Assembly (NCBI GenBank): GCA_035627515.1
Contig: DASPLQ010000012.1
Location: forward strand, 7,269 to 71,268
DNA length: 64,000 bases
Reading direction: 5' to 3'
Origin: Vitreimonas sp.
GTDB lineage: Bacteria > Patescibacteriota > Microgenomatia > UBA1400 > PJMF01
The translations under genes were made by a program, and so were the position numbers. Of the stretch, positions 2,425 to 59,133 are shown piece after piece; within the stretch, counting starts at the first letter, position 1, and every line of letters starts with the position of its first letter. The notes beneath the pieces are model-generated. The model did no database searches, had not been told where the DNA came from, and worked only from the letters and a program-made list of their open reading frames with translations.

Positions 2425-2484
2425 TTTCCTCTGCTGCAAGTTTGAACGGAATGTGTTAAAATTTTGCTCTGTTGGTTTTAAGAT

Positions 2485-2558
2485 GGGTGTATAGCTCAGA
2501 TGGTTAGAGCGCAGTCCTGATAAGACTGAGGTCCTACGTTCGATTCGTAGTACACCCA
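2485..2558 (+). tRNA. tRNA-Ile (anticodon GAT)
   Basis: The cloverleaf was read directly: acceptor GGGTGTA/TACACCC, D arm AGCTCAGATGGTTAGAGC, anticodon loop CT-GAT-AA, T arm GGTCCTACGTTCGATTCGTAGGAC-like, discriminator A, then CC. Confidence 0.85.
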
Positions 2559-2591
2559 CCCTGCTTCACTCTCCTCAATTTCTCGTTTTAT

Positions 2592-12462: not shown

Positions 12463-12536
12463 TCTGTTTAGATTAAGACTTTTTTAGAGTTAAAAACCCT
12501 ACTTGGTTATCTACTGAGATTTATTCATAATGACAC

Positions 12537-13667
12537 ATGGCTCTAAGTTGTGATTTGCTCAATGGTGAAGTAAGTTCAATAATCTCACTTAAAAATGATC
12601 TTCAGGATAAACTCGCTTTATTCCGTGAACAACCCAACACGGTTGGCTTACAAGCAGAGTGTGAAGAGGTATTAACTCAATTAAGTGAGGCTTCTGAAAA
12701 TTTTAAAGCTGAATATCGGTTTCATATCACTGAACTGTTTTCCAAATTATTCTACAAGGATCCTGAAGCGACTTTTGAAGATGTGGAGCCAGAGTTTCAA
12801 GAAAATATGGAGTCGTTTTTTATCAATAATAACTTTCAGGTGGTCTATGAGGGTAATTTCACTACTGTCAGTAGTGATTACTTTCCCAGATTCATCGTGG
12901 CCCAAGAAGGAGACATGAGCTACGTTAACCCCCAGTGTGAATATCCTAACCTCCAATCACTGGGTCGTTTGACAATCCATACCTACGACAAAGGTCCTCA
13001 TTTGCCAAAATTAAAATTTGCTAGAAGTATTGCAAATGATAGTGGGATGGTGGTTTGCGAATCAATTACCTTGCCAGAGATTGAAATACTCGGACATGCG
13101 GAGATCAATGCCAAAAGTTTCGTGGCACCTCAGCTTCGAATACTGGGAATTGACTTAAATCATCGAAATGGGCCAATGATCGATTCTGCTACTATTATTG
13201 TCCATAGCAATTTAGATCTCCCAGCCGTCATCGACGTCGGGGTCTTACGGCTTTTTGCTGAAGGTCATACAATTAGTTTACCTAAGTTACCCAAGTTGCC
13301 ACTAGGAGAATCTTACTTTAAATGTCGAGAGTTATACCTTGATTCACTAAAAATGGGAACCGGCGCCATTATTATTGCTCGTGAGAGCACTAAAATTTAT
13401 ATTCCTGAGTTAGAAGTTATCAACTTTTTAGTCTGTCCCAAAGCTACCAGCATTACTGCTTCTAACTTAAGAAGTGTAGGGGTGCTATTAGATATTCGAG
13501 CTTTAGAAACCGAAGCCCAATTCAAAGAGAGCTTTCCTAAGTTAGAGGCTCTGGATAAGGAAGTGGTGACTGATTCTGAAGAAATCAAAAACTATTTAGT
13601 GACCTGTCGGCAAAAACAGACTATCCGTGGCTCATTTAAGATTGAGTATCAGGACGTAGTGTATTAA
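12537..13667 (+). CDS. Cys5/LRR-like tandem paralog P1 (MALSCDLL...; 376 aa)
   Basis: Shares with P2-P10 the N-terminal MxxSCxLL, DYFPRFI, repeated xAPxL units (FVAPQLRILG), FKESFPKL and C-terminal GSFKIEY. CATAAT lies 5 nt upstream of the ATG. Confidence 0.7.
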   Translation: MALSCDLLNGEVSSIISLKNDLQDKLALFREQPNTVGLQAECEEVLTQLSEASENFKAEYRFHITELFSKLFYKDPEATFEDVEPEFQENMESFFINNNFQVVYEGNFTTVSSDYFPRFIVAQEGDMSYVNPQCEYPNLQSLGRLTIHTYDKGPHLPKLKFARSIANDSGMVVCESITLPEIEILGHAEINAKSFVAPQLRILGIDLNHRNGPMIDSATIIVHSNLDLPAVIDVGVLRLFAEGHTISLPKLPKLPLGESYFKCRELYLDSLKMGTGAIIIARESTKIYIPELEVINFLVCPKATSITASNLRSVGVLLDIRALETEAQFKESFPKLEALDKEVVTDSEEIKNYLVTCRQKQTIRGSFKIEYQDVVY

Positions 13668-13816
13668 CTACTATGCTTAACTCTTGTTCATTACTACGAT
13701 CAAATCATTAAATCTGGCCAACTTAAGTTTAGAGAGATTAGAGTAATAAAGCCGTCCCAAACCCCATAATTTAAACCCCAGCTTGGTAATCTTCAAAAAA
13801 ATGTTCATAATGATCT

Positions 13817-14926
13817 ATGGCTCAAAGTTGTGATTTATTAACTGCAGAAGCTGCTTCAGTATTTGATATTAAAAATACACTAGAACAAGAGCTTGACCAA
13901 TTACGTGCTGGACCTACGAGCCGTGGACTCGAAACTTGCCAGCAATTGCTGATAGACACAAAAACCGCCCAGGATCATTTTAAGAGCAGTTATGGATCAC
14001 AGATTCGCAATCTCCTCGCTAAATTATTACTTAATAATCCCAACGCATCATATCAAATGGTTGAACGTCAAAATCGTTATTTAGTGGATAACTTTAGTAT
14101 TGATGATGATCTGAAAGTAACGTACAACGGCAATTTTAACGAGGTCAGTGATACCTACTTTCCAAGCATCATCGATACCATCAACGGTCAGATTTATTAT
14201 GTTAACCCTCAAATAAAATATACAGATCTTAAAAAGATGGGTTACTTCGAAATTCGCGTGTATGATGTGGCGCCAGAATTAACCCACTTAACTTGGGCCT
14301 CTGAAATTGCCCAAGATGATCAGTCTCAGATGTGTGCGGCAATTGATTTACCAGCCCTAGAGTACCTCTATCACCTTACGCTTTATACTGAGGCGTTCAC
14401 GGCTCCCAACTTAGCTTACCTGGGACCAGAAACAGGACCCAACTCACCGCAAATATGTAAGTTGACGGTTAGAAATGATTTAATGTTACCCTCACTTACT
14501 ACGTTGCGATGGCCACAATTTGTAGCTCAAAATAAAACTATTAGCTTACCTAAGGTTTTATACTTAAATGGTACGGCCGTTTTTACCTGCCGCGCACTGT
14601 CACTCGACTCGCTCACTTCCACTGGCGCTGGCGGCATATATGCCCATGAAGCTCACAAGGTAAATGTGCCTCTGCTGAATCGAGCTACAAACTTTTCCTG
14701 CCTCCAAGCAACCGAAATAAATGCACCCCAATTAGCAACAATTGAATATTCTTTACATATTAAGGCGCTATCGACTGTAGATGATTTTAAAAAAGCCTTT
14801 CCAAAATTGAGGTATATTGGCATGAGTGTTTGGACTAGTTCACCTGAAATTGCCGGCTATTTGAAAGACCAACAAAAGAGTGGCGGCATCCAAGGCAACT
14901 TTAGTATTGAGTTCCGAGAATCATAA
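13817..14926 (+). CDS. Cys5/LRR-like tandem paralog P2 (MAQSCDLL...; 369 aa)
   Basis: Same architecture: TYFPSII, FTAPNL, INAPQL, FKKAFPKL, GNFSIEF. The 5' leader and the first ~25 nt are near-identical to P1. Confidence 0.7.
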   Translation: MAQSCDLLTAEAASVFDIKNTLEQELDQLRAGPTSRGLETCQQLLIDTKTAQDHFKSSYGSQIRNLLAKLLLNNPNASYQMVERQNRYLVDNFSIDDDLKVTYNGNFNEVSDTYFPSIIDTINGQIYYVNPQIKYTDLKKMGYFEIRVYDVAPELTHLTWASEIAQDDQSQMCAAIDLPALEYLYHLTLYTEAFTAPNLAYLGPETGPNSPQICKLTVRNDLMLPSLTTLRWPQFVAQNKTISLPKVLYLNGTAVFTCRALSLDSLTSTGAGGIYAHEAHKVNVPLLNRATNFSCLQATEINAPQLATIEYSLHIKALSTVDDFKKAFPKLRYIGMSVWTSSPEIAGYLKDQQKSGGIQGNFSIEFRES

Positions 14927-14934
14927 TTAAATCC

Positions 14935-16005
14935 ATGACAGCAGCTTGCCCAATTTTAACCACTGAATCTCAAAACATTCTTTCGTACGTTGATGAATGT
15001 CAGCGCCTCTTAGATGATTTTCGCGCTTACCCGACTCAGGAAAAAATAACTCAAATTGAACAATCTCTAACAGGGTTTCACGAAGTGAAACATCGGTATG
15101 TGGAGTTTTATCAAAGTCAGGTACGCAATTTGATTAGAGATTTTTATATGGCGCTGGATGAGCCTTATGAAATTGATAATGCCCAACACATTGCTGATAA
15201 CTGGGTCACTTTTGAAAATGATTATGAAGTGGTATTAGCAGGTAATACTGATTTTAGTAAACTACCAATTAGTTATTTTCCCAGTATCGTTAAACATATT
15301 ACCGGACAACTATATCCCACAGATCGATTGAATGCCTTTCCTGAGGTTGCCTCAATCAGTATTATCGATCTCAAATACTGCACAACTACTCCAACTTTCA
15401 CTAAACTCAAAAAAACAGATAGTATTTATTGTGCACCACCTTCCTCTCAACCATTAATTGATCTTGAGTTCCCTGTTTTAGAAGATGGGGGGGATATTGA
15501 GGTCTTCGCCAATAGTTTCAAAGCTCCACACTTAACAAGTGGTGGAGTACTAGATATTCTTACTACTGAGGACATTGCTTTACCACAGCTTACTAAATTT
15601 GAAAAAAAGGTAAATTTGGTTAGTAAAGGGAACATTCAACTAGACTCACTTCAAGAAATTAAAAATAAAGCAACAATTGATTGCGTTCATTTCTCAGCTC
15701 CCAATTTAGTAACATTAGATCTGCCAGAAGTTTCCATTACTGCTGAGAGAAGTATTGACATTCCTAAACTAAAAAATGGCATTGCATTGAAGGTAAGTGC
15801 TCCTCACATTTCAGCTCCCCACCTTGAAAATCTAAATATGCTCAATGTTGGCTACCTCACTGATCCTGAGGAATTTTTCAATGCTTTTCCTCGGTTACAC
15901 ACTTGCACTCAAATCTTTGTAAGATCATTAGCTATTAAACAAGCAATCGAGGCTAGCAATAAAATCCGATATTCACAAATTTTTGTACTGACTAACCAAT
16001 TATAA
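14935..16005 (+). CDS. Cys5/LRR-like tandem paralog P3 (MTAACPIL...; 356 aa)
   Basis: SYFPSIV, FKAPHL, FSAPNL, ISAPHL, FFNAFPRL. The gap from P2 is 8 nt. Confidence 0.7.
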   Translation: MTAACPILTTESQNILSYVDECQRLLDDFRAYPTQEKITQIEQSLTGFHEVKHRYVEFYQSQVRNLIRDFYMALDEPYEIDNAQHIADNWVTFENDYEVVLAGNTDFSKLPISYFPSIVKHITGQLYPTDRLNAFPEVASISIIDLKYCTTTPTFTKLKKTDSIYCAPPSSQPLIDLEFPVLEDGGDIEVFANSFKAPHLTSGGVLDILTTEDIALPQLTKFEKKVNLVSKGNIQLDSLQEIKNKATIDCVHFSAPNLVTLDLPEVSITAERSIDIPKLKNGIALKVSAPHISAPHLENLNMLNVGYLTDPEEFFNAFPRLHTCTQIFVRSLAIKQAIEASNKIRYSQIFVLTNQL

Positions 16006-16010
16006 TATCT

Positions 16011-17117
16011 ATGCTCAACAGCTGCCACATCCTCACCACTGAACATAATAGTGCCTTGCAGCTGTGTGCGGATGCGCGCGCAAAATTAGAAACCTTTGGC
16101 AAAGATCCTACCGAAGCTAATAAACAGGCTGTAAATGAGGCGATCGAAAAACTACCACCTTTACATGACGAGCTGATAGCTACATTACGACCAAAAGTTA
16201 TTGACCTTTTTACTAAATTATTGACTAAAAACCCTGATGCCACCTTTGCCAATTTAAATCAAGATGACCAACGCAATGTCAGCCAATTTACAGTCAGTGC
16301 TGATGGCTTTGTAATCTATCACCGCAACGCTTTACCGTTATGTAAAAATTATTTTCCCACGGTGATTAAAGAAGTGCAGGGGATGGTGAGGCATATTGAT
16401 ACTACCACTACCTATCCTAATTTAGAAAAAGTCGTCAGTTTTGTGATCGACACAGAAGGTGACTTCAATACACAAATTGTCTTACCAAAAGCCACTCATA
16501 TTGACGCTATATCGCAGTTTACTGGTGGCATGATAAAGAGTAACGTTTCCTTTCCTCTGCTACGGTCGGGGGACAGGATAGAGCTTAAAGTAGCCAGTTT
16601 TGAGGCCCCTTTATATGATAGTGAGGGAGACATCACGTTAGAAACAAAGAGCGATATTGTTTTTCCCAACCTAAAAAAACCTCGTAAATGTACTCTTTCT
16701 ACACCTGGTAACAAGATTGACCTACCAGCTCTGACTGAGATCAGAGATGGAGGCACCTTTACCTGTCAAGAATTTATTGCCAATAACTTAACCGATAGCG
16801 GCACCACTGGCTTGACTATCTCTGGCGCACAACGCGTTGAGATAGAGAGTATGGTTAACATCACTAAGCTTGAGTGTTATCGAGCGACTGACATTAAAGC
16901 CTCAAAATTAAAAACAGTGGAGTCAGTGTTATCAATTCGTGGCATCACTACCGTAGAAGCTTTTACCAAGGCCTTTCCTCAGTTGATTGCAGTGGGGAGG
17001 AGAATCATTGTCGGCTCAGAGGAAGTTCGTGATTACATCGAGAAAATAAAGTCTGAAAATAAAATTTCTGGTCAATTTACAGTGTCGACTATTCCACTCC
17101 AGCCCATAACTGACTAG
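16011..17117 (+). CDS. Cys5/LRR-like tandem paralog P4 (MLNSCHIL...; 368 aa)
   Basis: NYFPTVI, FEAPLY, FTKAFPQL, ISGQFTVS. TATAAT lies 4 nt upstream of the ATG. Confidence 0.7.
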   Translation: MLNSCHILTTEHNSALQLCADARAKLETFGKDPTEANKQAVNEAIEKLPPLHDELIATLRPKVIDLFTKLLTKNPDATFANLNQDDQRNVSQFTVSADGFVIYHRNALPLCKNYFPTVIKEVQGMVRHIDTTTTYPNLEKVVSFVIDTEGDFNTQIVLPKATHIDAISQFTGGMIKSNVSFPLLRSGDRIELKVASFEAPLYDSEGDITLETKSDIVFPNLKKPRKCTLSTPGNKIDLPALTEIRDGGTFTCQEFIANNLTDSGTTGLTISGAQRVEIESMVNITKLECYRATDIKASKLKTVESVLSIRGITTVEAFTKAFPQLIAVGRRIIVGSEEVRDYIEKIKSENKISGQFTVSTIPLQPITD

Positions 17118-17128
17118 AATGGAGTTAC

Positions 17129-18208
17129 ATGTCTCAGTACTGTGCACTCCTTACTAATGAATTTTCCAAGATGCATCATCTGATGAATACTTGTGCGAGT
17201 TTGCTGCCTGGTACTAACCAAGTCATTACTGATCAACACATCACTGCTTTTGAAAATGCCGCGGCAGAGTTCGAAGCGGCAAAAAAAGAGTTGCCCGCCA
17301 TTTATCTAACTCACATCCGTGCCCTACTTACCAAATTTATTCAAACTTTTCCAGATGGCTCACGCTTTAGAAATAATACAAATTTCATCAATAATTTCAT
17401 TGACAGCTGTCACATCGATGATGATTTGAAGGTGAAACTGAATATGATGATTCATATGCCAGAAGATCAATGGCAGTACTTGCCCACCTTTATTACTCAC
17501 ACGTTAAAACCATTAATCTTAAGTAGAAGCATCACTAAAATAACTCATCTCGAAGAAGCCGAGCAAATTGACATTTCTGCATCTACTAGGAATCTTTATT
17601 TTCATAAATTAAGACATATTACGGATGCTTTTTATGAGCTGAATACTTCACGCCCCATGCGCACTATCCATGCGCCAGCTCTAGAAACTGCTAACCAAAT
17701 TACTTTAGAAAATAGCAACCTCAAAGCCGACAAACTTCACACTGCCAATAGAATCTATATTTACACTAAACCAGATATAATTTTTCTACCGGTTTTACAA
17801 AAAATCGCTCAATATTCAGAGCTGCATGCTAAGGAAATCTCATTGCCCTCTTTAACAGAAATTGGTGAACAGCTTACTTTAAATGCTCAAAAGTGCAGTT
17901 TAGATAGTATCCAGCATGTTACTGCTCGTATCAATTTTTACGATACAGAAACAGTGTTGCTACCAAAATTAATCACCGCTACAGATATGAACTTTGATTA
18001 CAACACCACCACTATCAGTGCCCCAGAGTTAACAACTGTTAATGACATGGATATTGTGTGTGTGAAAAATATCGATGATTTTCATAAATTTTTTCCTAAG
18101 CTGCGCCAAGCTAAAAAGTTAATAGTAAGAAGTCATAGCCTTAAAAATGAGCTTGAAAAGTTGGGCTTACAAATAGATGAAATAGCTGTCGCACATCAAA
18201 TCGACTAA
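17129..18208 (+). CDS. Cys5/LRR-like tandem paralog P5 (MSQYCALL...; 359 aa)
   Basis: QYLPTFI, ISAPEL, FHKFFPKL. The most diverged member of the + array. Confidence 0.65.
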   Translation: MSQYCALLTNEFSKMHHLMNTCASLLPGTNQVITDQHITAFENAAAEFEAAKKELPAIYLTHIRALLTKFIQTFPDGSRFRNNTNFINNFIDSCHIDDDLKVKLNMMIHMPEDQWQYLPTFITHTLKPLILSRSITKITHLEEAEQIDISASTRNLYFHKLRHITDAFYELNTSRPMRTIHAPALETANQITLENSNLKADKLHTANRIYIYTKPDIIFLPVLQKIAQYSELHAKEISLPSLTEIGEQLTLNAQKCSLDSIQHVTARINFYDTETVLLPKLITATDMNFDYNTTTISAPELTTVNDMDIVCVKNIDDFHKFFPKLRQAKKLIVRSHSLKNELEKLGLQIDEIAVAHQID

Positions 18209-18217
18209 AAGTTACTT

Positions 18218-19264
18218 ATGACTAACAGTTGTTCAGTACTCAAATCACAAGGCTCACAATTTAGCCCCACCTTAGAAACGCTGGAAGAAATATTGAGCTC
18301 CTTTGACCACCAGCCAACGACAGAAAAAATGACTGCCTTTAATGAGGTAGCGAGTAAACATCAAATCTCCCAAGAACAATTTAAAGAAAACTACAAAAAC
18401 GCTGTGGCTGATTTGTTAACAGCATACCTGGGTCCTAAAATTTCTCAGAATGATTTTCTGCGTTCCATCTTGTTCAATCAGATTAAAATTAATGATGAGT
18501 GGGGAGTGGTGCTAGAACGGCCACTAGATTTAGCAACATTAAATCTTGAATACTTTCCCACCATTATCAAAGAAATCGCCCACCTAGAAACTAATTGGAG
18601 CTGTACTGACCTTTCATCTCTAGAAATAATTGATGAGCTTTACGTTCGCGCTTCAAAACAGCCACTCAACCTGTCCCATCTTAAAAGGATTGAAAGAAAG
18701 TTACACACCCCAGACCTAGCTTCAATTTCACTTGACTTGCCCCAACTCATTCATGCCATTGAGATCGAGGTCCAGACCAATTCGTTCTCAGCCCCACTCT
18801 TACCCCAAGCTAATCGCATATCTGTTACTGCTTTCGAAGGTGCGATCGATTTAACTGCACTTAAAAATTGTAATTTTTGCAACCTCACAGCCTTCGGAGG
18901 CTATATTTCATTACCTAATTTTGAAAAAGGGATCCTTCTTTCTGTTAACTGTGAACACTTTTATGCTCCTCTGTTACAAGAAATCATCACGCTGACATGT
19001 GATTGTGATTATATTGATTTACCTGAGGTTCATAAACTCACCTCACTTTATCTCCTTAAGGATTGTGAGGGTGAAGTCCCCAAGCTGGAAACGATAGGTG
19101 AGCTGAACATCAAACCAATGAGAGACCCTCACAAATTCCGTCAACTCTTTCCCAACTTACGGACCGCCACCACGGTGGTAGTGGGTTCGCAAGGTATGAA
19201 AATATATCTCGAACAATTACCGGACTTTTCAGCTACCACCATTATTATAATGAATAATAGCTAA
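18218..19264 (+). CDS. Cys5/LRR-like tandem paralog P6 (MTNSCSVL...; 348 aa)
   Basis: EYFPTII, FSAPLL, FYAPLL, FRQLFPNL. Confidence 0.65.
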   Translation: MTNSCSVLKSQGSQFSPTLETLEEILSSFDHQPTTEKMTAFNEVASKHQISQEQFKENYKNAVADLLTAYLGPKISQNDFLRSILFNQIKINDEWGVVLERPLDLATLNLEYFPTIIKEIAHLETNWSCTDLSSLEIIDELYVRASKQPLNLSHLKRIERKLHTPDLASISLDLPQLIHAIEIEVQTNSFSAPLLPQANRISVTAFEGAIDLTALKNCNFCNLTAFGGYISLPNFEKGILLSVNCEHFYAPLLQEIITLTCDCDYIDLPEVHKLTSLYLLKDCEGEVPKLETIGELNIKPMRDPHKFRQLFPNLRTATTVVVGSQGMKIYLEQLPDFSATTIIIMNNS

Positions 19265-19268
19265 GCCC

Positions 19269-20381
19269 ATGACTCAAAGTTGCAATCTCCTTACCGAAAA
19301 AAGCACTTCTATCTTCGCTGCTTACCGCGAGGTCACTCAATTGATGGCAGATTTCGTGGAGCACCCCTCACAGGTGAAACAAGACCGGATTGAATCGTTA
19401 CTTTTGCAGTTACCACAGATGAAAGATGCTTTTCGCGCTGACTACATCGAAGAAATCAAAAATTTATTTACGCGGATGTATTTCCCTACAGCCTATCAAA
19501 GTTTTGCCGAAATGAGCAATCATCGTCAACACATCCCCGAACCAATTACAGCTTTTACCGTCGATGATGACTTTTTGGTTAATTATGAAGGCGATCCTGA
19601 GCGTTTAATGGAAAAATATGTACCTACCTTTATTAAAAAGGTCTTAGGAAAAATAATTCATCGCCATACCCAAGGCACTTATCCACATTTAAGGTATGTT
19701 ACAGATTTTGAGAACCGCGTATATGATCAACCGCTGGTATTTCCTGAGCTAACCGGGATCAATTCCTTTCGCCCCGAGCAAACCACCTCTAGGGCCGGGG
19801 CCTTGCACTTTCCTAAACTCAAAACGTTTGACCAAATCACCGCCCATGTGGAAGACTTTCAAGCCCCCGAGCTAGAATATGGTAATAATCTACAAGTATA
19901 TTCATCGAATGATATTATCTTGCCCACGGTATGGAAATGTGGGCTGCTACACTTAGCTTGTAAAGACAAAATGGTAGATCTGCCATCATTGACCCACCTT
20001 CATAAGAAAGGTCAGTTTATATGTGCTGAACTCTATGCCAATCAGTTGAGTACGGTAGAAGATGAAGGTCTTTATACTACCGCCCATAAAGTGCATCTCA
20101 ACTCTCTGGAATCGACACCACATCTAACTTGTGCCAGTGCCTCTGAGATTATTGCTCCCAAATTAAAGTTTGTTTATAAAAGTTTGGATATTATGTCTCT
20201 CCACAGCCTGGCTGAGTTCAAAGCTGGTTTTCAATCTTTGGTTTTTGTGGGAGACAACATAAGTACTAGTTCAGAAGAAATACGTGATTTTTTAGAGGAA
20301 CAAAAGCAACAAAAAAAATTAACTGGGGCACTTGATGGCCCTCGCATTGATTTTTACTCTCGACCGAAACGATCACCCTAA
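19269..20381 (+). CDS. Cys5/LRR-like tandem paralog P7 (MTQSCNLL...; 370 aa)
   Basis: KYVPTFI, FQAPEL, IIAPKL, FKAGFQSL, SSEEIRDFLEEQ. Confidence 0.7.
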   Translation: MTQSCNLLTEKSTSIFAAYREVTQLMADFVEHPSQVKQDRIESLLLQLPQMKDAFRADYIEEIKNLFTRMYFPTAYQSFAEMSNHRQHIPEPITAFTVDDDFLVNYEGDPERLMEKYVPTFIKKVLGKIIHRHTQGTYPHLRYVTDFENRVYDQPLVFPELTGINSFRPEQTTSRAGALHFPKLKTFDQITAHVEDFQAPELEYGNNLQVYSSNDIILPTVWKCGLLHLACKDKMVDLPSLTHLHKKGQFICAELYANQLSTVEDEGLYTTAHKVHLNSLESTPHLTCASASEIIAPKLKFVYKSLDIMSLHSLAEFKAGFQSLVFVGDNISTSSEEIRDFLEEQKQQKKLTGALDGPRIDFYSRPKRSP

Positions 20382-24678: not shown

Positions 24679-24747
24679 TGTTTGCTATTTTTTTAATAGC
24701 ACATTTTTCTTTCATGTAGGTTGAGCTGTATAATCCATGCTCAGTAC

Positions 24748-26154
24748 ATGCCAAAAATCAGTTGCCAACTTGATACTACCCTTTACCAAGCTTTTAGCGC
24801 TAAAGCTGCTCGGCTCGGCTATCCAAAATCTAAGGTCCTCCGGACTTGGTTATCAGCTGCCACTATACATTTAAATTTATCTGAAAATAAAGCGAGTGGT
24901 AAAAAAAGTCTTTACACGGTGACACTTTCGCCAGCAGAAATTACCAAACTCAAAAACCTATCCACCCAGTTTAATCTAAGTCTCACTAAAACCATTCATT
25001 TTCTCATTCTCAATAATGTCGAACTGGGTACTACTCATGCTCCAGAGTTACCACAGCACACTAATAATAATCTCAAATACTTATGGCAAAACGGACAGCT
25101 GCTCGAAATTATTCGCTTAGGCGAAAATCAGTACGAATCACTGTGTGTGCCAGACTTGCTCTATCTAGTTCAAGCCTACTCTAAAGTTGGTCGCTTTGAT
25201 AAAGGCACCTCTGTTTTAACTCATATTGACGCTCACAGACTTATTTCACCTCACTCACCGCACTATACGTCTTTTTTATCCTTAAAGGCTTCATGCTTAA
25301 TTCATTCCTCACAGGATGCCGCCGCATGCCATCAACTCCTCAACTTGGCTTTTAAAATAGCACATCAAAAACGAGATCGTCTGGGGTTAGGAATTATTCA
25401 CCGAACTTTAGGAACCGTTTATTTTTATGAGGAAAAAATTCAACTTTCGCTAAACAACTATTTGCTGTCACTCGATTATCTTGACCCCCTTGAGCATCCT
25501 CTTGAGTTTACCCATTCATTACTTCATTTAAGCCGCATTTATATCGGTCAAAAAAACATTCACTTAGCTAGTTACTATTTACAAAAAATAGCCACCATTT
25601 TAGAAACAAATCCTAATGACTGCTATAACGCCTGGTATCAACTACAGTTAAGTCGGCATTACCTTCAACTTGGGCAATATTCGGCTGTTCTTAGCACAGC
25701 TCAAAAATCAGAAGACCTTAATCTTCGCTGCGGCAGTCAGTTTGGCTTAACTCAATCCTATCGAGAAAGGGCACAAGCCTATTTATCACTGGGGCACAAG
25801 GATAATGCGCTTAATTTATTTCATCAATCGTTTCTAATTGATAAAAAACTACGGCCCAACTCCTACCATCGTTCTAACTTTTACGAACTCTATTTGCGCA
25901 TTGAAAAAAAAGATGAAACAGCGAAGAGGGAACTTTTTCATTTAGCTCACCACCAACTTAATACACAATCAATCATGCCCGACTTTCGAAAATATATTTA
26001 TTTTTCTACTGCCTATATTTTGGGCAAAGGTAAAGAAGAGCAACTAGCCGGCGCCACAGGCTTAAAACACTTACATCAAACTAGCAGCTATCCTGGCATG
26101 AACCAAGCTACGCTATCGGTACTGCAAACTGCCCAACTCCAACCTTTAGTGTAA
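24748..26154 (+). CDS. tandem-RHH + TPR-like putative transcriptional regulator (paralog of 35504-36925 and 38522-39931)
   Basis: N-terminal KISCQLDTTLYQAFSAKAARLGYPKSKVLRTWL (strand-helix-helix). A second RHH-like unit YTVTLSPAEITKLKNLSTQFNLSLTKTIHFLI. The C-terminal ~330 aa are helical repeats conserved with the two other long paralogs (YIGQKN, LRP..YHRS.F..LY.R). Start placed at MPKIS. Confidence 0.55.
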   Translation: MPKISCQLDTTLYQAFSAKAARLGYPKSKVLRTWLSAATIHLNLSENKASGKKSLYTVTLSPAEITKLKNLSTQFNLSLTKTIHFLILNNVELGTTHAPELPQHTNNNLKYLWQNGQLLEIIRLGENQYESLCVPDLLYLVQAYSKVGRFDKGTSVLTHIDAHRLISPHSPHYTSFLSLKASCLIHSSQDAAACHQLLNLAFKIAHQKRDRLGLGIIHRTLGTVYFYEEKIQLSLNNYLLSLDYLDPLEHPLEFTHSLLHLSRIYIGQKNIHLASYYLQKIATILETNPNDCYNAWYQLQLSRHYLQLGQYSAVLSTAQKSEDLNLRCGSQFGLTQSYRERAQAYLSLGHKDNALNLFHQSFLIDKKLRPNSYHRSNFYELYLRIEKKDETAKRELFHLAHHQLNTQSIMPDFRKYIYFSTAYILGKGKEEQLAGATGLKHLHQTSSYPGMNQATLSVLQTAQLQPLV

Positions 26155-28568: not shown

Positions 28569-30392
28569 TCAATAAAGTTCTACCATTGATTTCTCAAGTA
28601 CCTTAAAAGGTTCAAAACGAGGGTTTTGTAATTTTGCAAACAACTCTACAGTTGGAAGTAAGGGGATCTTGCTTCTGAGTTTTTTATGATTTGGAGCTTG
28701 TTCAAGTCTTCTATTAGTCACGTGCTCGTAGCACACCTGATCTCCAACCATTTTTTCTATAAAAGTATGTTGTAAAGGTTTAAGCAAAACAGGATTGTCA
28801 AAACCTCCTGAAGTCATTGAGACACCAGTGGCATAAGAAGGTGTAAACGCTGACATTACTCCTTGAACTTCGGGATAATGTGCTGCTAAATATTTAAAAG
28901 TTAAAGAAAACATGCTGCTACTAGTGTTCCCAGGTGTACCAGGTCTGCTGTAGAGTCGGGTTAGGTCATAACATTTTCTCGGATCATACCCTTTCATTAA
29001 TAACGTATTCTGCTTATAGGCACGATCTATACGATCTAAAGCTAACACTGAAAAGGGGATTTCCTCACCTTGGATAAATAAACCAAATGCTTTATCAGCT
29101 CGTGGGGTATGAATATAGTGCAAATCACCATGAAACTGTGCCCCCCAATTATTGTCAATTTCTCTAAATTCAAGTGGTATCTGCATTGAAGCACTAGTTA
29201 CACCCTCTTCCTGAATTGCCATCACCTCTCCGTTACGTTTCTGAATTACCCATCCTTGTTCAGCAAAAATTCCACTAGGAGTTAAGATTTCCTTTAAGGG
29301 CAATTCGCTTTTTGATAATCTATCTGCAATTAATAAATACTGTTCTTCAATAATTTTAGTTACTAATGATTTGTTAAGATTAAATTTTTTAACAAAATTC
29401 TCCTCTAAGCACAAGATGTTTCTCCAATTTTTATAAGCACCCATTTTATAAAGATATTCATCAAGTTCTTCACCATTTTCGAAAATTTCAGAGATTGAAA
29501 ATGTACTCAACCTAAACAGTGTTTGATACTTCAGATCCTGTTGATCGCATAATAAGTTATGATATTGAACAAAAGCTTTTACGAGAGGAGCTACTTGTTC
29601 TCGAAGATGTGACCCTAAATAATCAGTGGGCCAATTTTCTAAACCAAATTTAGGAAACAACATTATTTCATGGCGATCAATCTTATCGGCTAATGCTTCC
29701 CGACGAGATTCGTAACTAGTAAATTGAACTGCTTCACGCATAACTCCAAATCGAATTACATTAGGGTCTTTTGACCTGATAATTCGATCAGAATCGCGCA
29801 TAAATTGTGGCTTTAAGTTATCTGTGTCTGGATTAACAACAGTAATTTTTGGCCCATTAATAGATATTTGATCTGGAGATTTTTGATTGATTATTAAACC
29901 CTGACTATGATCAACAAAGTCTGTGATATAACTCAGTAATCTACCTAAAATCATGCTGTCCTCAGATAAAGTGGTAGCCATTTCCTGAACCCGACTCTGT
30001 GCTTCAAGTGTTTTGCATTCACCTATAATATCGATTCCTGAATTATTTTTATCACTTATTTTTAGCTCATTCTTTTCATTCACACTTATATCTAAAGTAT
30101 TTAATATCTGTTCACAGATTTTTCCTCGCTCTTGTTTTTTACTTTTACCTACAGGGAGCTCAATGTTATCACGATGAATAATGTAGGCTAAGCTCAAAAA
30201 AAAGTCCTCAAATAAAACAGGTGCAAAGCCGCTCTCAGCCATACTATTTTTAAGATCACTACCACTTTTTGATTTATCACCTAAGGTCAAACCAATATTT
30301 AAACTACTTAAATTATCGCGCTTGTGATCCTTTGTCATCCTTGAAAAAGTAGTTGATGGTGGTTCAACGAAGAGTTTGTTGTCTTTGTACAT
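28569..30392 (-). CDS. hypothetical protein (607 aa), no recognisable family
   Basis: Long ORF, 6 nt downstream of the P-loop gene and 12 nt upstream of the pfkB gene. No TM segment or signal peptide. Confidence 0.55.
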   Translation of the reverse strand: MYKDNKLFVEPPSTTFSRMTKDHKRDNLSSLNIGLTLGDKSKSGSDLKNSMAESGFAPVLFEDFFLSLAYIIHRDNIELPVGKSKKQERGKICEQILNTLDISVNEKNELKISDKNNSGIDIIGECKTLEAQSRVQEMATTLSEDSMILGRLLSYITDFVDHSQGLIINQKSPDQISINGPKITVVNPDTDNLKPQFMRDSDRIIRSKDPNVIRFGVMREAVQFTSYESRREALADKIDRHEIMLFPKFGLENWPTDYLGSHLREQVAPLVKAFVQYHNLLCDQQDLKYQTLFRLSTFSISEIFENGEELDEYLYKMGAYKNWRNILCLEENFVKKFNLNKSLVTKIIEEQYLLIADRLSKSELPLKEILTPSGIFAEQGWVIQKRNGEVMAIQEEGVTSASMQIPLEFREIDNNWGAQFHGDLHYIHTPRADKAFGLFIQGEEIPFSVLALDRIDRAYKQNTLLMKGYDPRKCYDLTRLYSRPGTPGNTSSSMFSLTFKYLAAHYPEVQGVMSAFTPSYATGVSMTSGGFDNPVLLKPLQHTFIEKMVGDQVCYEHVTNRRLEQAPNHKKLRSKIPLLPTVELFAKLQNPRFEPFKVLEKSMVELY

Positions 30393-30398
30393 ATATCT

Positions 30399-31028
30399 TT
30401 ACCTCAAATAAGTGTTAGTTTCTTCCGCGATGACAGAGACCGAACGATCTGTAAAAGCAGGGTCGTTATTAATTACTATTAGTCCCAAACCTAAGCTTTG
30501 TGCTAAACCATAAGTCATCAAGTAAGCTAAATTTTGATGCATCTGAATTTGATCTAAGGTTTCAGTCGGCCTTTGTCGCCTGCTATTTTCAGCTTGACGC
30601 CATGCTTGAATTAATTCAGGCGCACTCCTAACAAAAATATACTCGTGAGGATTAATTATTTTTTCATTACCAGGGTTAAGTTGCATTTTCCCTTTGGTGA
30701 AAAAAGCGACATGAGCTAAATTTAGTGCCGGTTGTAAAGCCAGGAGACTCGCAATTGCCATTGAGACACTATCATCAATTTCCTCCGATGATAAATTTTT
30801 CATCGCGTCACGATTGTCAATTTTTGTAGCTGATGGAGCTGCTGTCAGAAAATTAAAAAGCTCAGTTCCAAAGTTAAAGATAGTTACCTCATCAAACCAT
30901 GTGTTCTTATAATGAGTCAGGGCTTGACCTACTAAATAGTCTTTGCCTGAACCTGATACACCTGTGACAGTGATTATGTTATTTTTCTTAGTTGTTGATG
31001 GCTTAAGAATTCGCTCAACTGTAGACAT
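30399..31028 (-). CDS. P-loop NTPase / small kinase-like protein
   Basis: Start chosen at MSTVERI, with the ATG 1 nt after the greA-like stop. Walker A TVTGVSGSGKDYL. About 210 aa, typical of NMP/sugar kinase-like P-loop proteins. Confidence 0.5.
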   Translation of the reverse strand: MSTVERILKPSTTKKNNIITVTGVSGSGKDYLVGQALTHYKNTWFDEVTIFNFGTELFNFLTAAPSATKIDNRDAMKNLSSEEIDDSVSMAIASLLALQPALNLAHVAFFTKGKMQLNPGNEKIINPHEYIFVRSAPELIQAWRQAENSRRQRPTETLDQIQMHQNLAYLMTYGLAQSLGLGLIVINNDPAFTDRSVSVIAEETNTYLR

Positions 31029-31029
31029 A

Positions 31030-31587
31030 CTATCCTTGTAGATTGAATAAAAATGAGGGCTCAATATTGAGAACCTTGACTTTATGCACATCAAAATCAG
31101 TTCGGTATGTCACCACGGAATTAAGAGGAGCGCCAATAATTGCTTGGGCCAAAGGAGTTTCTAATGACACCATTATTTCTTGGCTAGTAAATCTGGTGTC
31201 AGATTCTGCTAAATATGAACTGTCATACGTAGAGCCCACCGTCGCGAAAATTATTTCCTTATCACCGTCTGCAAACTTTATTTCTAACTTCACACGATGT
31301 CCTTGTTTGACTGTGCTGGTATCTAAGACTTCGCTAGCGCTTAAGACTTCAATTAGCGCTAAATCAAAATTCAAACCATTATTTTGATCATGTCGTAATT
31401 CTTGTTCGCGGTGAATTTGATGCATTAAGGCTTCATCTAACATATCTCCATCACCAATATTTCCCATTACTCTCAACTCTTCTCCCATTTGTTTTATTTT
31501 TTGAATATTGGTATCAATGGTTCCCTTCATGGCTTCTACAGTTTGTGGGAAAACCTTAATTTCTTTTCGCATGTTGCTCCTACGCAC
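31030..31587 (-). CDS. GreA/GreB-family (Rnk-like) protein with a short N-terminal coiled coil
   Basis: C-terminal FKBP-like Gre domain (VSLETPLAQAIIGAPLNSVVTY, GHRVKLEIKFADGDKEIIFATVG). The N-terminal coiled coil is shorter than in canonical GreA. Confidence 0.6.
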   Translation of the reverse strand: MRRSNMRKEIKVFPQTVEAMKGTIDTNIQKIKQMGEELRVMGNIGDGDMLDEALMHQIHREQELRHDQNNGLNFDLALIEVLSASEVLDTSTVKQGHRVKLEIKFADGDKEIIFATVGSTYDSSYLAESDTRFTSQEIMVSLETPLAQAIIGAPLNSVVTYRTDFDVHKVKVLNIEPSFLFNLQG

Positions 31588-32359: not shown

Positions 32360-32391
32360 TTGACAACATATTTTCCACCTCATGGTATAAT
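32360..32391 (+). promoter_or_regulatory. sigma70-like promoter (TTGACA ... TGgTATAAT) driving a leaderless TrmB-family mRNA
   Basis: TTGACA at 32360-65 and an extended -10 TGGTATAAT ending at 32391. The ATG at 32399 is 7 nt downstream with no SD, so the predicted TSS is about at the ATG. Confidence 0.5.
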
Positions 32392-32398
32392 AGCTTCA

Positions 32399-33166
32399 AT
32401 GAAAAACGTCACACAGTACTTAGAACAGCTTGGTTTAACCCCGCTTGAGAGCCAACTTTACTTAGCCCTCCTCGAAAGTGGCCCGACTACGGTTCTACAA
32501 CTTTCCAATGCATCAAAGATTAAACGCGCGACTACCCATTTCAATGTCGAAAACTTAATTGCCAAAGGTTTAGTTTCACAAATTAGCCAAGGCTCACGCC
32601 GGCAAATCATTGCTGAGCCACCTGAAAAAATATTATTACTGTTAGATAAGCAAAAGTATCACCTCAAACAGTTAGAGCATCAATTTCCTGAAGTATTATC
32701 GACTATTCATCAAGAATTACCCCAAACCAAAAACACACAACGACCCGTGGTTAGGTATTATGAAAATCTAGAAGGTTTCAAAACAGCCACAATATTTTCT
32801 CTTGAACACGCCACAGATGAAATATTATTTATCACTAATCTTCTCCAATGGCATAACACCTATGACTCCAAGTATGATCGTGAACAATATATTGCTGAAC
32901 GCCTACGAAGAAATATTCCGCTCAGAGCCTTAGTGGTACCTCAAGGTGAGTATAGCGATCATTATCGATCTCTTGACAAAGAACTGCTTCGTGAAACCCG
33001 CTATCTACCGGTTGACTCAGACTTACGAACAACTATCTTCATTTATAATAATGAAGTTTCCATCATGCTTTCCAACGAACCTTTCACTTCAATCGTGATT
33101 GAAAGCCCAGAAATTTACGAAACGTTTAAAGCCTTATTTAATAGTCTTTGGCAAAAAGCTGAGTAG
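32399..33166 (+). CDS. TrmB-family transcriptional regulator (wHTH + TrmB-C-like domain)
   Basis: N-terminal YLEQLGLTPLESQLYLALLESGPTTVLQLSNASKIKRATTHFNVENLIAKGLVSQ. The C-terminal IESPEIYETFKALFNSLW motif is shared with the RHH paralogs. Start set at MKNV because the ORF-track start would overlap the promoter. Confidence 0.6.
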   Translation: MKNVTQYLEQLGLTPLESQLYLALLESGPTTVLQLSNASKIKRATTHFNVENLIAKGLVSQISQGSRRQIIAEPPEKILLLLDKQKYHLKQLEHQFPEVLSTIHQELPQTKNTQRPVVRYYENLEGFKTATIFSLEHATDEILFITNLLQWHNTYDSKYDREQYIAERLRRNIPLRALVVPQGEYSDHYRSLDKELLRETRYLPVDSDLRTTIFIYNNEVSIMLSNEPFTSIVIESPEIYETFKALFNSLWQKAE

Positions 33167-33180
33167 AGTAGAGAGCTAAC

Positions 33181-33978
33181 ATGAACTTACCTTTGATATA
33201 TACCTTCATGTCTCAGTTAGGAGTTTCCCAACGCGAAGTGGAAATTTATCTGGAGCTACTTAAAACTGGCCCTACTAGCATTCTTTACCTCAGCAAGGTC
33301 ATGGAAATGCCGCGGACTACCATTCATCAAAACGTAGAAAGCCTGATTAATAAAGGATTAGTTATTGAACAAATTATTGGCAGCAAACGTAAGATTGCAG
33401 CGGAACCGCCAGCTAAAATTTCAGCTATTATCAAAGATAAAGAGCTGGCTTTAGAAAAAAAGGCTACTGAGATTGGGATACTTCAAGAAAATTATCATAC
33501 CGTTATCTCACAACTGAAAACTATTACTACGGCAGAAGATACTCCTCAAACAAAGGTGATGATTGTCGAAGGTAAACAAAATATTTCACGGCTTTACAGT
33601 GAGCTCTTGAAATCCAAGCAAATTAAAGCTTACTGCAGTGTTTCTGAAATTACAGAAATTTTCCCCAATAATTTCGAGAAATTCCTCGAGGCCAGTAATA
33701 AAGGTGCCCTCATTTGGGACCTAATTGAGGAAAAGTCATATGACATAACTAAAATAAGTCATTTTAGTAAATATCCTAATTATCACTATAAATTTTTTCC
33801 CGTTGATCTCACCATCGAGTGTATGGACTATTTACTTTATGATGACACGATTACTACTATCCAAGGGGGTAAAAACCCGTCCGCTATCATCATTAAAAGT
33901 CCACTACTTTATAAAAATGCTGTCAGAATCTTTGATTCTCTGTGGAACTTTTTACCTGAACCTAACTTAAATGCCTAA
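33181..33978 (+). CDS. TrmB-family transcriptional regulator, paralog 2
   Basis: MSQLGVSQREVEIYLELLKTGPTSILYLSKVMEMPRTTIHQNVESLINKGLV. C-terminal IIKSPLLYKNAVRIFDSLWNFL. Confidence 0.6.
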   Translation: MNLPLIYTFMSQLGVSQREVEIYLELLKTGPTSILYLSKVMEMPRTTIHQNVESLINKGLVIEQIIGSKRKIAAEPPAKISAIIKDKELALEKKATEIGILQENYHTVISQLKTITTAEDTPQTKVMIVEGKQNISRLYSELLKSKQIKAYCSVSEITEIFPNNFEKFLEASNKGALIWDLIEEKSYDITKISHFSKYPNYHYKFFPVDLTIECMDYLLYDDTITTIQGGKNPSAIIIKSPLLYKNAVRIFDSLWNFLPEPNLNA

Positions 33979-34726
33979 TCTACCTATTCAACACAAACTA
34001 AATTTTACGCTTAATAAAAAATTATATACTGAGTTTTCTTTGGCTGCGGACAAAGCCGGCATCACCAAAGTGGAACTGTTAACAGAATGGATCAATCATA
34101 CTCATACACTGGACTTAGAACCAACAGCATCAACACTAATTGACCTAACAAGTTATAGTTTTCACTTAGATAATACTGTTTACTCCAAACTCATTGATTT
34201 AGCTCAAAAATTTCACTTAAATAAAAGTCACCTCTTGCGATTAATTATTCATAACAACATTTCAGGCTTTTCCCGCCATCAATCAGTGAGGGTGTTTGAT
34301 AATTTTATAAGACATGTTGAGGGGAAAAAAGCAGTAAGTGTTATCTATGATCAACTACTTGAGTCACCATTTTTGAAATCATACACGTATCTCGACAAAA
34401 CATATCGTTATTTTCCTGAAAATTTTGCTAAGTTTGCTCAAGCCGTGAGAAATGGTACAAAAGTTTTTAACATTTATCCTGATACTCAGGTATGCCATCA
34501 AGTAGAGAAGAAATTTCATGCTTTACAGTTAGAAAACTACCACCGAAAGTTTGCAAATATTTCATTGACTAACAACTGCATTAATGTATTACATAACCAC
34601 TCAACTGTGGCATTTATTTCAGTAGCCCCAGTGATTTCAGCGACCATTATAGATAACCCACTTTTGTATCAAAATTCACTCTCGATTCATGACTCACTTT
34701 GGAATCAGTTGCCCGCAAAGCTATAA
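33971..34726 (+). CDS. tandem-RHH + TrmB-C-like putative regulator (251 aa)
   Basis: KLNFTLNKKLYTEFSLAADKAGITKVELLTEWI, then YSFHLDNTVYSKLIDLAQKFHLNKSHLLRLII. C-terminal IIDNPLLYQNSLSIHDSLWNQL. Overlaps the upstream gene by 8 nt. Confidence 0.55.
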   Translation: MPNLPIQHKLNFTLNKKLYTEFSLAADKAGITKVELLTEWINHTHTLDLEPTASTLIDLTSYSFHLDNTVYSKLIDLAQKFHLNKSHLLRLIIHNNISGFSRHQSVRVFDNFIRHVEGKKAVSVIYDQLLESPFLKSYTYLDKTYRYFPENFAKFAQAVRNGTKVFNIYPDTQVCHQVEKKFHALQLENYHRKFANISLTNNCINVLHNHSTVAFISVAPVISATIIDNPLLYQNSLSIHDSLWNQLPAKL

Positions 34727-34731
34727 CCGTT

Positions 34732-35499
34732 ATGAACCCATTAGATCACAAACTAAACATTAAAATTGAACAAACACTCTATAGTGCCTTTTCTCAACTA
34801 GCTAATAGGGCTGGATTAACTAAGATTAATTTGTTAAGACAATGGTTACTTGAAGATGAAAACAAACCTTTGCTTTTAGAAACTCAAGACGAGCAAAATC
34901 AGAGTGTAGCATATAGTTTTTTCCTTGATCATCAGACTTTCACTAAGTTGGAAAAAAAAGCCTCTCTTTTAGGAATTAATACTAGTCTCTACCTGAAGCT
35001 ACTTATAAAAGCTCATACACATCCTGAAACAGGTTTAGCTGTTCAACTAGGTAAACAACATCAGTTTTATATACCAACCCAGTTTATGAAAATATATCAA
35101 GGAAAAGCAGATACCTTGAAAACGTACCAGAGAATACTCAAATCAAAATACATCAAAGCCTACACACAGTTAGATAAAATTTGGCCACTGTTACCAGAGA
35201 ACTATGATGACTTTGCAGATGCAGCGCGCATGGGCACCACCATTCACAATCTTAACATTGGGAGCTTGAATTCTAGACAAAAAGAACAACAATTTAAAAA
35301 ATTAGGTTTCGATAATTATGAGGGAAAGTTTTTACCTTTCGACCCTAAATGGAACTTTGTTGATTTGTTAATTACTGACCGAAAAGTAGCAATTATTCAA
35401 AGCTCGCCACAGCTCAGAGCTATCGAAATTAATCACCACTTTTTTCACAAACATTTATTTATGCTTCATGATTATTTGTGGAGGCTACTCCCAACTTAA
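34732..35499 (+). CDS. tandem-RHH + TrmB-C-like putative regulator (255 aa)
   Basis: Start set at MNPLDHKLNIKIEQTLYSAFSQLANRAGLTKINLLRQWL. Second unit YSFFLDHQTFTKLEKKASLLGINTSLYLKLLI. C-terminal LHDYLWRLL. Confidence 0.55.
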   Translation: MNPLDHKLNIKIEQTLYSAFSQLANRAGLTKINLLRQWLLEDENKPLLLETQDEQNQSVAYSFFLDHQTFTKLEKKASLLGINTSLYLKLLIKAHTHPETGLAVQLGKQHQFYIPTQFMKIYQGKADTLKTYQRILKSKYIKAYTQLDKIWPLLPENYDDFADAARMGTTIHNLNIGSLNSRQKEQQFKKLGFDNYEGKFLPFDPKWNFVDLLITDRKVAIIQSSPQLRAIEINHHFFHKHLFMLHDYLWRLLPT

Positions 35500-35503
35500 A
35501 AGT

Positions 35504-36925: not shown

Positions 36926-37000
36926 CATTACAGCACTTTGCTGTCATTTTTTGGCACACAGAGACGAACTTGGTATAATTGCTCCATCTTGAAACAAATC

Positions 37001-37756: not shown

Positions 37757-37758
37757 TC

Positions 37759-49779: not shown

Positions 49780-49852
49780 GGCACGGTACCAGAGTGGTTA
49801 ATGGCTAGGTCTGCAAAACCTCAGTTCAGGGGTTCGAATCCCCTCCGTGCCT
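49780..49852 (+). tRNA. tRNA-Cys (anticodon GCA)
   Basis: Acceptor GGCACGG/CCGTGCC, anticodon loop CT-GCA-AA, T arm AGGGGTTCGAATCCCCT, and discriminator U73 (the Cys identity element). It starts 2 nt after the GIY-YIG stop. Confidence 0.8.
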
Positions 49853-49860
49853 CAAGAGAC

Positions 49861-59041: not shown

Positions 59042-59115
59042 GGACGGTTAGCTCAGTTGGTTAGAGCGCTTCATTGACATTGAAGAGGTCACAGGTTCGA
59101 GTCCTGTATCGTCCA
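59042..59115 (+). tRNA. tRNA-Val (anticodon GAC)
   Basis: Acceptor GGACGGT/ATCGTCC with a G-U pair, D arm AGCTCAGTTGGTTAGAGC, anticodon loop TT-GAC-AT, T arm ACAGGTTCGAGTCCTGT, and discriminator A. Confidence 0.85.
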
Positions 59116-59133
59116 CCTGATGAGATCACTCAC

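Follow-up and report, generated by a model that had tools for sequence, protein, structure and literature searches.

Pairs of a MoxR-class AAA+ ATPase and a vWA protein, such as NorQ/NorD, CbbQ/CbbO, RavA/ViaA and BchI/BchD, act on client proteins, of which the metal-ion-dependent adhesion site (MIDAS) captures a peptide while the AAA+ ring performs the remodelling (PMC7159879). In ternary conflict systems a variable third protein joins the MoxR-vWA pair (PMC7159879), and in jumbo phages a MoxR protein is paired with an N-terminal metallopeptidase-vWA protein, the two being proposed to process structural proteins (PMC7824862). The present analysis concerns a 64-kb stretch of DNA (64,000 nucleotides, hereafter the window) from a metagenome-assembled genome (MAG) deposited as Vitreimonas sp., in which two tandem arrays encode ten diverged solenoid proteins with a cysteine close to the initiator methionine. 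The family was found to be genomically coupled to a gene pair for a MoxR AAA+ ATPase and a candidate zincin-vWA protein, a coupling that is new here. With a probability of roughly 0.5, judged from sequence, the family would be the variable, target-binding third component (adaptor or sensor) of a MoxR AAA+/zincin-vWA machine, and the system fits best as a novel variation on the MoxR-vWA ternary theme, with a fold class already known.

The coupling was observed in all four genomes examined, in each of which a family array adjoins the AAA+ gene and its partner gene, and two gene orders are represented (Table 1). The genome of the window is one of the four: its AAA+/partner core lies on the same 1.41-Mb contig as the window arrays, about 600 genes away from them. 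The four AAA+ proteins are 27-40% identical to one another and the four partners 22-31%, so the genomes are deeply divergent and the synteny does not come from close relatedness; on these comparisons it is unlikely that an adjacency found in two gene orders was inherited by chance. The initial annotation of the window had recognized the arrays and the paralogs but missed the AAA+/zincin-vWA pair that stands beside family arrays.

Tandem amplification is itself a property of the family. A third array in the window genome comprises P0052, P0013, P0028 and P0062 (VD999_03320 to _03335; accessions HYD35076, HYD35075 and HYD35074 for the first three), and this genome holds at least 14 family paralogs. 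Arrays of two and of at least three members were found on a soil contig (L004), and an array of three on contig L008. In an organism of 37% GC (contigs L013, L007 and L012), at least 26 consecutive same-strand genes extend over more than 30 kb, with the end of the array lying beyond; here all 15 open reading frames (ORFs) tested on L007 were confirmed by a hidden Markov model (HMM), and the extra L012 genes were assigned from their size and faint Recep_L matches.

By its sequence the ATPase is a MoxR-class AAA+ protein. Three of the four proteins exceed the Pfam AAA_5 cut-off of 22 bits (L006, 40.7; L004, 34.2; L009, 60.9), and the L013 protein, which at 19.1 bits stays below the cut-off, shares 32% identity with those of L006 and L004 (E 1e-101 to 1e-103). 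The Walker A motif reads GETG(T/A)GKT and the Walker B motif IIDEFN, and weak GvpN and CobS-like matches were obtained. In the partner, an alignment of the four sequences showed an invariant H99-E100-x-x-H103 and, in the C-terminal half, an invariant MIDAS signature made up of D428-x-S430-G-S432, T574 and D608 (the D of TDG); these motifs point to a zincin (HExxH)-vWA (MIDAS) fusion. Pfam VWA and VWA_2 score the partner at 15-19 bits, below threshold, its PDB profile match to the TRAP vWA has an E of 0.03, and PDB sequence-profile searches with the AAA+ protein and with the partner returned nothing significant. Neither a signal peptide nor a transmembrane segment was found in the AAA+/partner pairs of L006 and L004. 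In PADLOC-DB 2.0, the AAA+ protein matched only mad8 (E 2e-3, in the P-loop region), and no match was obtained for the family or the vWA partner.

This arrangement resembles the MoxR-vWA ternary conflict systems of the VMAP, iSTAND, FtsH and beta-propeller types (Kaur, Burroughs, Iyer & Aravind 2020, PMC7159879), in which a MoxR AAA+ protein, a vWA protein and a fast-diverging third protein share a conserved neighbourhood. The proposed logic is also alike, in that the vWA protein would capture a peptide of the third protein and MoxR would remodel the complex. However, the present third component belongs to none of these types, being a Cys-tipped hairpin joined to a solenoid resembling leucine-rich repeats (LRRs) and L domains, and it occurs in arrays of 3 to 26 or more genes, of which some lie far from the core pair. 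Here the vWA partner has an N-terminal HExxH domain, whereas theirs carry C-terminal effector domains, and the host belongs to the candidate phyla radiation (CPR) instead of being a multicellular actinobacterium or cyanobacterium. EAD, TIR, caspase and trypsin domains were sought in the system components with Pfam and PADLOC, and none was found. The group 2.2 pair of jumbo phages and the tail-assembly pair of the archaeal virus ATV (Acidianus two-tailed virus; Iyer et al. 2021, PMC7824862) likewise combine a MoxR AAA+ protein with an N-terminal metallopeptidase-vWA protein, and a role in proteolytic maturation or assembly has been proposed for them. In contrast, the present loci are chromosomal and lie among housekeeping genes, and the solenoid family has not been reported for the phage pairs. 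A search of 50,697 phage records, by tblastn with one partner (the L006 copy), brought up no sequence relative, and PHROG matches were weak only.

In the window, the seven plus-strand genes P1-P7 are intact, encode 348-376 aa within 12537-20381, and agree with the first annotation in coordinates, sizes and gaps (149 nt between P1 and P2, then 8, 5, 11, 9 and 4 nt). An HMM built from P1-P7 scores each of the seven at E 1e-120 to 1e-153 and also recovers P8-P10 from the minus strand at E 1e-11 to 1e-17, through which the latter join P1-P7 and make up the ten paralogs counted before. The homology of P1-P7, judged by sequence, is far beyond chance. The seven are 20-36% identical in pairs, a level of amino-acid identity at which synonymous sites are saturated, and alignable end to end, with M1, C5, Y115/P117 and a C-terminal F-x-x-x-F-x-x-L invariant across the alignment. 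No DNA-level repeats of at least 24 nt are shared among the window paralogs, so that recent duplication, gene conversion and a template/variable pair of the diversity-generating retroelement type are ruled out. The family genes at 12537-20381 have a GC content of 37-42%, or 27-40% at third codon positions (GC3), and the neighbouring housekeeping genes 44-50% and 42-53%, respectively.

AlphaFold2 (AF2) models were built with the window paralogs alone as alignment. The model of P2 reached a predicted local distance difference test score (pLDDT) of 91.9 and a predicted template modelling score (pTM) of 0.83, and that of the divergent minus-strand P8, with a pLDDT of 87.1, has the same architecture, which runs from a disordered tip through a two-helix hairpin, a short linker and a short-strand solenoid to a cap helix and a last helix with a strand. 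In the P2 model, helices at residues 6-31 and 35-72 (the hairpin) and 84-91 account for the helical region of ~100 aa described earlier, a solenoid of ~11 turns occupies residues 113-331, the cap helix residues 321-327 and a further helix residues 343-355. Residues 1-4, the tip with the Cys, are disordered in both models (pLDDT below 50). The modelled fold class is that of a right-handed LRR/L-domain-like solenoid without a close solved relative, so that the LRR-like fold foreseen in the initial annotation is supported by the predictions for P2 and P8.

The repeat unit is h-x-h-P-x-L with a period of 18-21 aa, near 19-20, and about 11 units occupy residues 113-326 of P2; the earlier period of ~22 aa is corrected to this range. 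The YFP, xAPxL and FPxL motifs named as separate anchors do occur, but all of them are copies of this one unit. Within the YFP(S/T)(I/F)I motif the Y and P are invariant but the rest is not, and the C-terminal G-x-F-x-I-E ending attributed to all seven is present in only two to three of them. The cap helix of P2 falls on F-K-K-A-F-P-K-L, the family cap motif being F-x-x-x-F-P-x-L. The consensus of the repeat has no conserved Asn and hence no Asn/Cys ladder of the LRR kind, and no Pfam family, those of the classical LRR clan included, was matched by P1-P7 at E<=1 apart from chance matches. Foldseek searches of the PDB and BFVD with the family model gave no match below E 1e-3. Structure matches of the solenoid to beta-helix and LRR structures are generic only, and those to the LRRs of SspH1, IpaH and SlrP (E 0.8-3) are at chance level.

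All ten window paralogs begin M-x(2-3)-C, with the Cys invariant at residue 5, or at residue 4 in two minus-strand copies. In-frame stops lie 1-8 codons upstream of the ATG of each paralog, so the Cys is truly residue 4 or 5 and no hidden signal peptide precedes it; furthermore, a Kyte-Doolittle scan of the family proteins found no 19-residue stretch with a mean above 1.45 and no transmembrane segment. The upstream stops and the low hydropathy bear out the initial description of an N-terminus with neither signal peptide nor lipobox. Of the MxxSCxLLT-type motif given there, the Cys is invariant but position 7, claimed to be L or I, is V in P6. Loss of the Cys in homologues from other genomes had been named as grounds for abandoning the original proposal, and the opposite was found. 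The Cys is one of two invariant columns in a 32-sequence family alignment (32/32; the other is the Pro of Y-x-P), occupies its HMM column in all 63 sequences aligned there, and in 61 of the 65 cluster representatives from outside the window falls among the first 24 residues, at 4-24 residues from the Met (median position 7). Of the four representatives without an early Cys, at least one (P0141) is a start-codon miscall. Since the Cys-Met distance varies from 4 to 24 and the window family genes use both TGT and TGC for this residue, selection on the protein is indicated. The local signature consists of a polar leader rich in N, S, T and Q followed by C-[QS]-x-[FL]-[QTK]-x-x-[FLI].

Several known roles of such a cysteine or hairpin were considered and rejected. 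A bacterial lipoprotein (an Lgt/Lsp substrate with the lipobox [LVI][ASTVI][GAS]C) is not compatible with the missing h-region, the Cys at 4-5 residues from the Met and the polar leader. An internal thioester of the C3-like or TED-like type (C..Q) would need a Gln at +4, which is not conserved. Cys258 as a universal disulfide or metal partner of the N-terminal Cys is present in long forms only, in 13 of the 20 sequences with a residue there. The hairpin of WXG/LXG-type substrates of type VII secretion also seems unlikely, as the WxG motif is missing and the hairpin turn of the family proteins carries F-x-x-x-P instead. On the models, the Cys lies on a tip that is disordered and accessible, a position suited to an intermolecular role; it may be conjectured to contact the Zn of the zincin through its thiolate, to determine a cleavage, to form a disulfide between subunits or to be acylated. 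Contig L008 carries genes for a DsbA-like protein of thioredoxin fold and for a VKOR (88-897 and 13334-13849), 9 kb and 1 kb, respectively, from the three-gene family array; this closeness may be coincidence, and it would be relevant if the invariant Cys forms disulfides.

Searches of Pfam, NCBIfam, PHROGs, PADLOC and PDB sequence profiles with the family proteins returned nothing significant, and no description of the family was found in the literature, in keeping with the initial view that the combination of motifs is not a described family. A word-indexed search of 5.8 billion proteins with P2 recovered P2 itself only, and with the 32-sequence alignment two true members only. When 1.84 billion cluster representatives were searched exhaustively with the profile (E<=1e-3), 1682 matches were obtained, mostly long multi-repeat proteins aligned in the repeat region alone; among the best 150 of these, 75 have the family N-terminal domain and 69 combine it with the C-terminal module. 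Some 65 family clusters besides those of the window emerged from the profile search, and full members range from 246 to 523 aa, a spread that comes from varying repeat number. GTDB genome scans with the AAA+ alignment and with a three-member family alignment found no relative, from which the lineage seems rare or poorly sampled. The best explanation is a previously unnamed, lineage-restricted, multi-copy family.

Some of the repeat-region matches pass the Pfam Receptor L domain, as does P0015 (family-profile E 4.5e-35, PF01030 56 bits). The window proteins do not match PF01030, and L007 members have faint precomputed matches only. Compared with the Receptor L domain (PF01030), BspA-like LRR proteins (PDB 4fdw, 4fs7) and the FNIP/LRR solenoids of giant viruses, the window proteins reach no Pfam LRR or L-domain threshold, and they differ in the h-x-h-P-x-L unit without an Asn/Cys ladder and in a family-specific Cys-hairpin module and cap motif. 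Among the repeat-only relatives, P0018, P0023 and P0026 have solenoid-like repeats within long proteins with PcfJ-like or ART-PolyVal domains; such domains are typical of the 'polyvalent proteins' of conjugative elements and phages.

In the proposed mechanism, the MoxR-class AAA+ ATPase and a zincin-vWA co-chaperone or peptidase would be the constant parts, encoded as a gene pair beside one array per genome. The N-terminal module, made of the Cys tip and the hairpin, would be a common docking or processing handle read by the vWA MIDAS, the zincin domain or both, and the AAA+ ring would use ATP to remodel the bound family protein. The many diverged solenoids would then provide differing target-binding specificities, following the logic of interchangeable adaptors or sensors known from F-box-LRR proteins or from conflict-system sensors. 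Since the window has neither the AAA+ gene nor that of its partner, its two arrays would be satellites of a remote core and would serve the single AAA+/zincin-vWA pair. The likeness to F-box-LRR adaptors of SCF ligases is one of analogy, not homology: in both cases an N-terminal helical docking module is joined to a variable LRR-type solenoid in a large paralog family that would serve one constant machine, but neither sequence nor structure gives evidence of an F-box, and the constant machine would be the AAA+/zincin-vWA pair instead of a cullin ligase. That the components interact physically, whether the solenoid proteins act as adaptors or as clients, what their target is and what the Cys does chemically are all points that we infer. 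A narrower version, which is distinctly unlikely in its full detail, takes the Cys as the chemical handle by which one MoxR/zincin-vWA machine recognizes dozens of interchangeable solenoid specificity subunits, acting either as a thiolate ligand of the catalytic Zn (a 'cysteine switch' in trans) or by determining a cleavage through which it is exposed; with the family, ultra-small CPR bacteria would possess a set of adaptors by which proteins of hosts or invaders are remodelled or proteolysed in an ATP-dependent way. If true, F-box-LRR or innate-immune receptor families would have a prokaryotic counterpart here, taking up 1-3% of the genome.

Several observations weigh against a third-component role. 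No homologue of the AAA+ protein or of the partner is encoded in the 64-kb window, neither window array adjoins the pair, and the L008 array also stands alone; the linkage thus holds per genome and not per array, and it rests on four genomes. The divergence of P1-P7 is even, at ~24% identity each in the N-domain, the solenoid and the C-terminus, so that it is centred neither on the repeats nor on the putative binding face, and diversifying selection on a binding surface, as the diversifying family of the initial annotation would suggest, is not shown. The zincin and vWA assignments depend on motifs and sub-threshold profile matches, PADLOC recognizes no known defence-system component, and the role proposed for the Cys is a conjecture.

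A different explanation, which appears unlikely, is that the solenoid proteins are subunits of a fibre, an appendage or a surface layer for host attachment. The MoxR/zincin-vWA pair would then be a dedicated assembly chaperone and maturation protease, perhaps clipping the leader before the Cys, and the hairpins would oligomerize. Precedents exist in the archaeal virus ATV, whose tail assembly needs a MoxR-vWA pair, and in the jumbo-phage metallopeptidase-vWA and MoxR pair with its proposed processing of structural proteins (PMC7824862), and the leader before the Cys is polar and variable in length. However, no export signal was found on the components checked (the family proteins and the L006 and L004 pairs), and 14 to 26 or more strongly diverged paralogs would be unusual for the subunits of one structure. 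Neither phage nor PHROG relatives were found, no prophage genes flank the arrays, and the structure matches amount to generic solenoid similarity.

Quite improbable is the explanation closest to the initial annotation, namely that the family consists of LRR effectors or adhesins, secreted or injected, which receive a lipid (by S-acylation) or some other modification on the N-terminal Cys once inside the host cell. SspH2 and SseI are S-palmitoylated on an N-terminal Cys, and the LRR-NEL effectors of the IpaH/SspH/SlrP group likewise have LRR-like repeats of ~20 aa and, in some members, an important N-terminal Cys. An LRR-like fold, a large diverged family of a kind typical of host interaction, and an invariant Cys on a flexible, accessible tip (residues 1-4, pLDDT below 50) would all fit such effectors. 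Yet the family proteins have no signal peptide, lipobox or hydrophobic segment, their Cys (in the window copies) is only 4-5 residues from the Met, Pfam detects no NEL ligase or other effector domain, and Foldseek similarity to the IpaH/SspH LRRs stays at E ~1. No secretion-system gene was seen in the 64-kb window or in flanking and related loci including L006, so that a type III secretion context is missing, and the conserved partners are AAA+/vWA proteins of a cytoplasmic type. Furthermore, the organism is a CPR bacterium and does not seem to be a pathogen of eukaryotes; to our knowledge, the known CPR hosts are prokaryotes, which are without DHHC palmitoyltransferases. The host-lipidated secreted effector is not supported on these grounds, though export by a non-classical route would be compatible with the sequences. 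Finally, it is highly improbable that the proteins are independent cytoplasmic interaction scaffolds whose adjacency to the pair reflects co-inheritance on a shared island and whose Cys is a structural helix cap or a redox-sensing thiol, since same-strand adjacency in four of four genomes with AAA+ proteins 27-40% identical and in two gene orders is hard to explain by hitch-hiking and a Cys that is 100% conserved yet sits on a disordered tip is atypical of structural residues, even though most arrays (both in the window and that of L008) are not adjacent to the pair and both the low GC3 of the family genes and the abutment of the minus-strand array on tRNA-Val are compatible with island-like acquisition.

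The source MAG is labelled Vitreimonas sp. at NCBI, Vitreimonas being an alphaproteobacterium. The Lon protease encoded in the window, whose GC content is ~41%, is closest, among named relatives, to proteins of Patescibacteria, Ca. Pacebacteria and Ca. Woesebacteria (65-72% identity), which places the window in a CPR/Patescibacteria genome; the label of this public MAG (VD999_*, HYD35xxx) looks wrong, and the taxonomic mislabel is corrected by the analysis. CPR bacteria make up a large share of bacterial diversity, and how they recognize and exploit hosts or resist phages is largely unknown. The family load is considerable: at least 14 genes in one genome of 1.41 Mb, and over 30 kb of DNA in another. 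If the linkage to the AAA+/zincin-vWA pair is functional, a new MoxR-vWA class would have a large interchangeable repertoire of binding modules as its third component, and a testable entry into host or invader recognition in CPR would be at hand in three soluble proteins with one Cys, one HExxH and one MIDAS.

Table 1. Family genes, regulatory elements and tRNA genes of the window, and gene order at the four loci where an array adjoins the AAA+/partner pair (window positions in nt; arrows follow the order of the genes)
Feature	Position	Strand	Description	Basis or remark
P1	12537-13667	+	376 aa, begins MALSC	family member by alignment and HMM
P2	13817-14926	+	369 aa, begins MAQSC	identical to NCBI VD999_00230
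P3	14935-16005	+	356 aa, begins MTAAC	alignment and HMM
P4	16011-17117	+	368 aa, begins MLNSC	alignment and HMM
P5	17129-18208	+	359 aa, begins MSQYC	alignment and HMM
P6	18218-19264	+	348 aa, begins MTNSC	alignment and HMM
P7	19269-20381	+	370 aa, begins MTQSC	alignment and HMM
P8	59134-60309	-	391 aa, distant paralog, begins MNHSC	HMM and AF2 model
P9	60330-61496	-	388 aa, distant paralog, begins MSHC	HMM
P10	61500-62672	-	390 aa, distant paralog, begins MSYC	HMM
Promoter-like element	12503-12531	+	TTGGTT-17 nt-CATAAT, stops 5 nt short of the P1 ATG	inferred from sequence
Promoter-like element	13783-13811	+	TTGGTA-17 nt-CATAAT, stops 5 nt short of the P2 ATG	in the P1-P2 gap
tRNA-Val(GAC)	59042-59117	+	at the 3' end of the minus-strand family array, 17 nt away (16 intervening bases)	
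tRNA-Ile	2484-2561			
tRNA-Cys	49780-49853			
L006 (window genome)		same strand	three family genes -> 732-aa AAA_5 protein -> 687-aa partner	
L004		same strand	three family genes -> 737-aa protein -> 685-aa partner	
L009		same strand	AAA+ -> partner -> family gene beginning MSSSCQQ, cut by contig end	
L013		same strand	AAA+ -> partner -> giant array	

Both window arrays are flanked by housekeeping genes (UvrD, TIM, FemAB, UMP kinase, GAPDH, trigger factor and IF3), and no integrase, phage or prophage genes flank them. The minus-strand array is bounded on the side away from tRNA-Val by infC (62837), and the layout is compatible with an insertion of this array at the tRNA-Val gene, where no integrase was seen. 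The similar promoter-like elements before P1 and P2 suggest two like promoters that would give leaderless or near-leaderless mRNAs; a consensus scan of the locus for promoters and terminators was not above the shuffled background overall. P3-P7 are preceded by gaps of 4-11 nt, with a GGAG upstream of P5 only.

Elsewhere in the window, a 607-aa protein is encoded at 28569-30392 on the minus strand; the one family it resembles is Pfam Mom, at 23 bits and below threshold, and it is followed by two ORFs without family assignment at 30399-31094 and 31030-31587. A second paralog family occupies the plus strand at 24721-26154 and 32360-39931, and the stretch from 28 to 40 kb with this family is low in GC (35-38%). 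It consists of three TPR-like proteins of ~470-485 aa (at 24721, 35468 and 38522; 29-42% identity) and six interleaved proteins of ~250-268 aa. An N-terminal TrmB-like helix-turn-helix region is common to the short and the long ones, and with faint matches to ComR_TPR and MalT_TPR the second family could be one of TPR-type transcription regulators.

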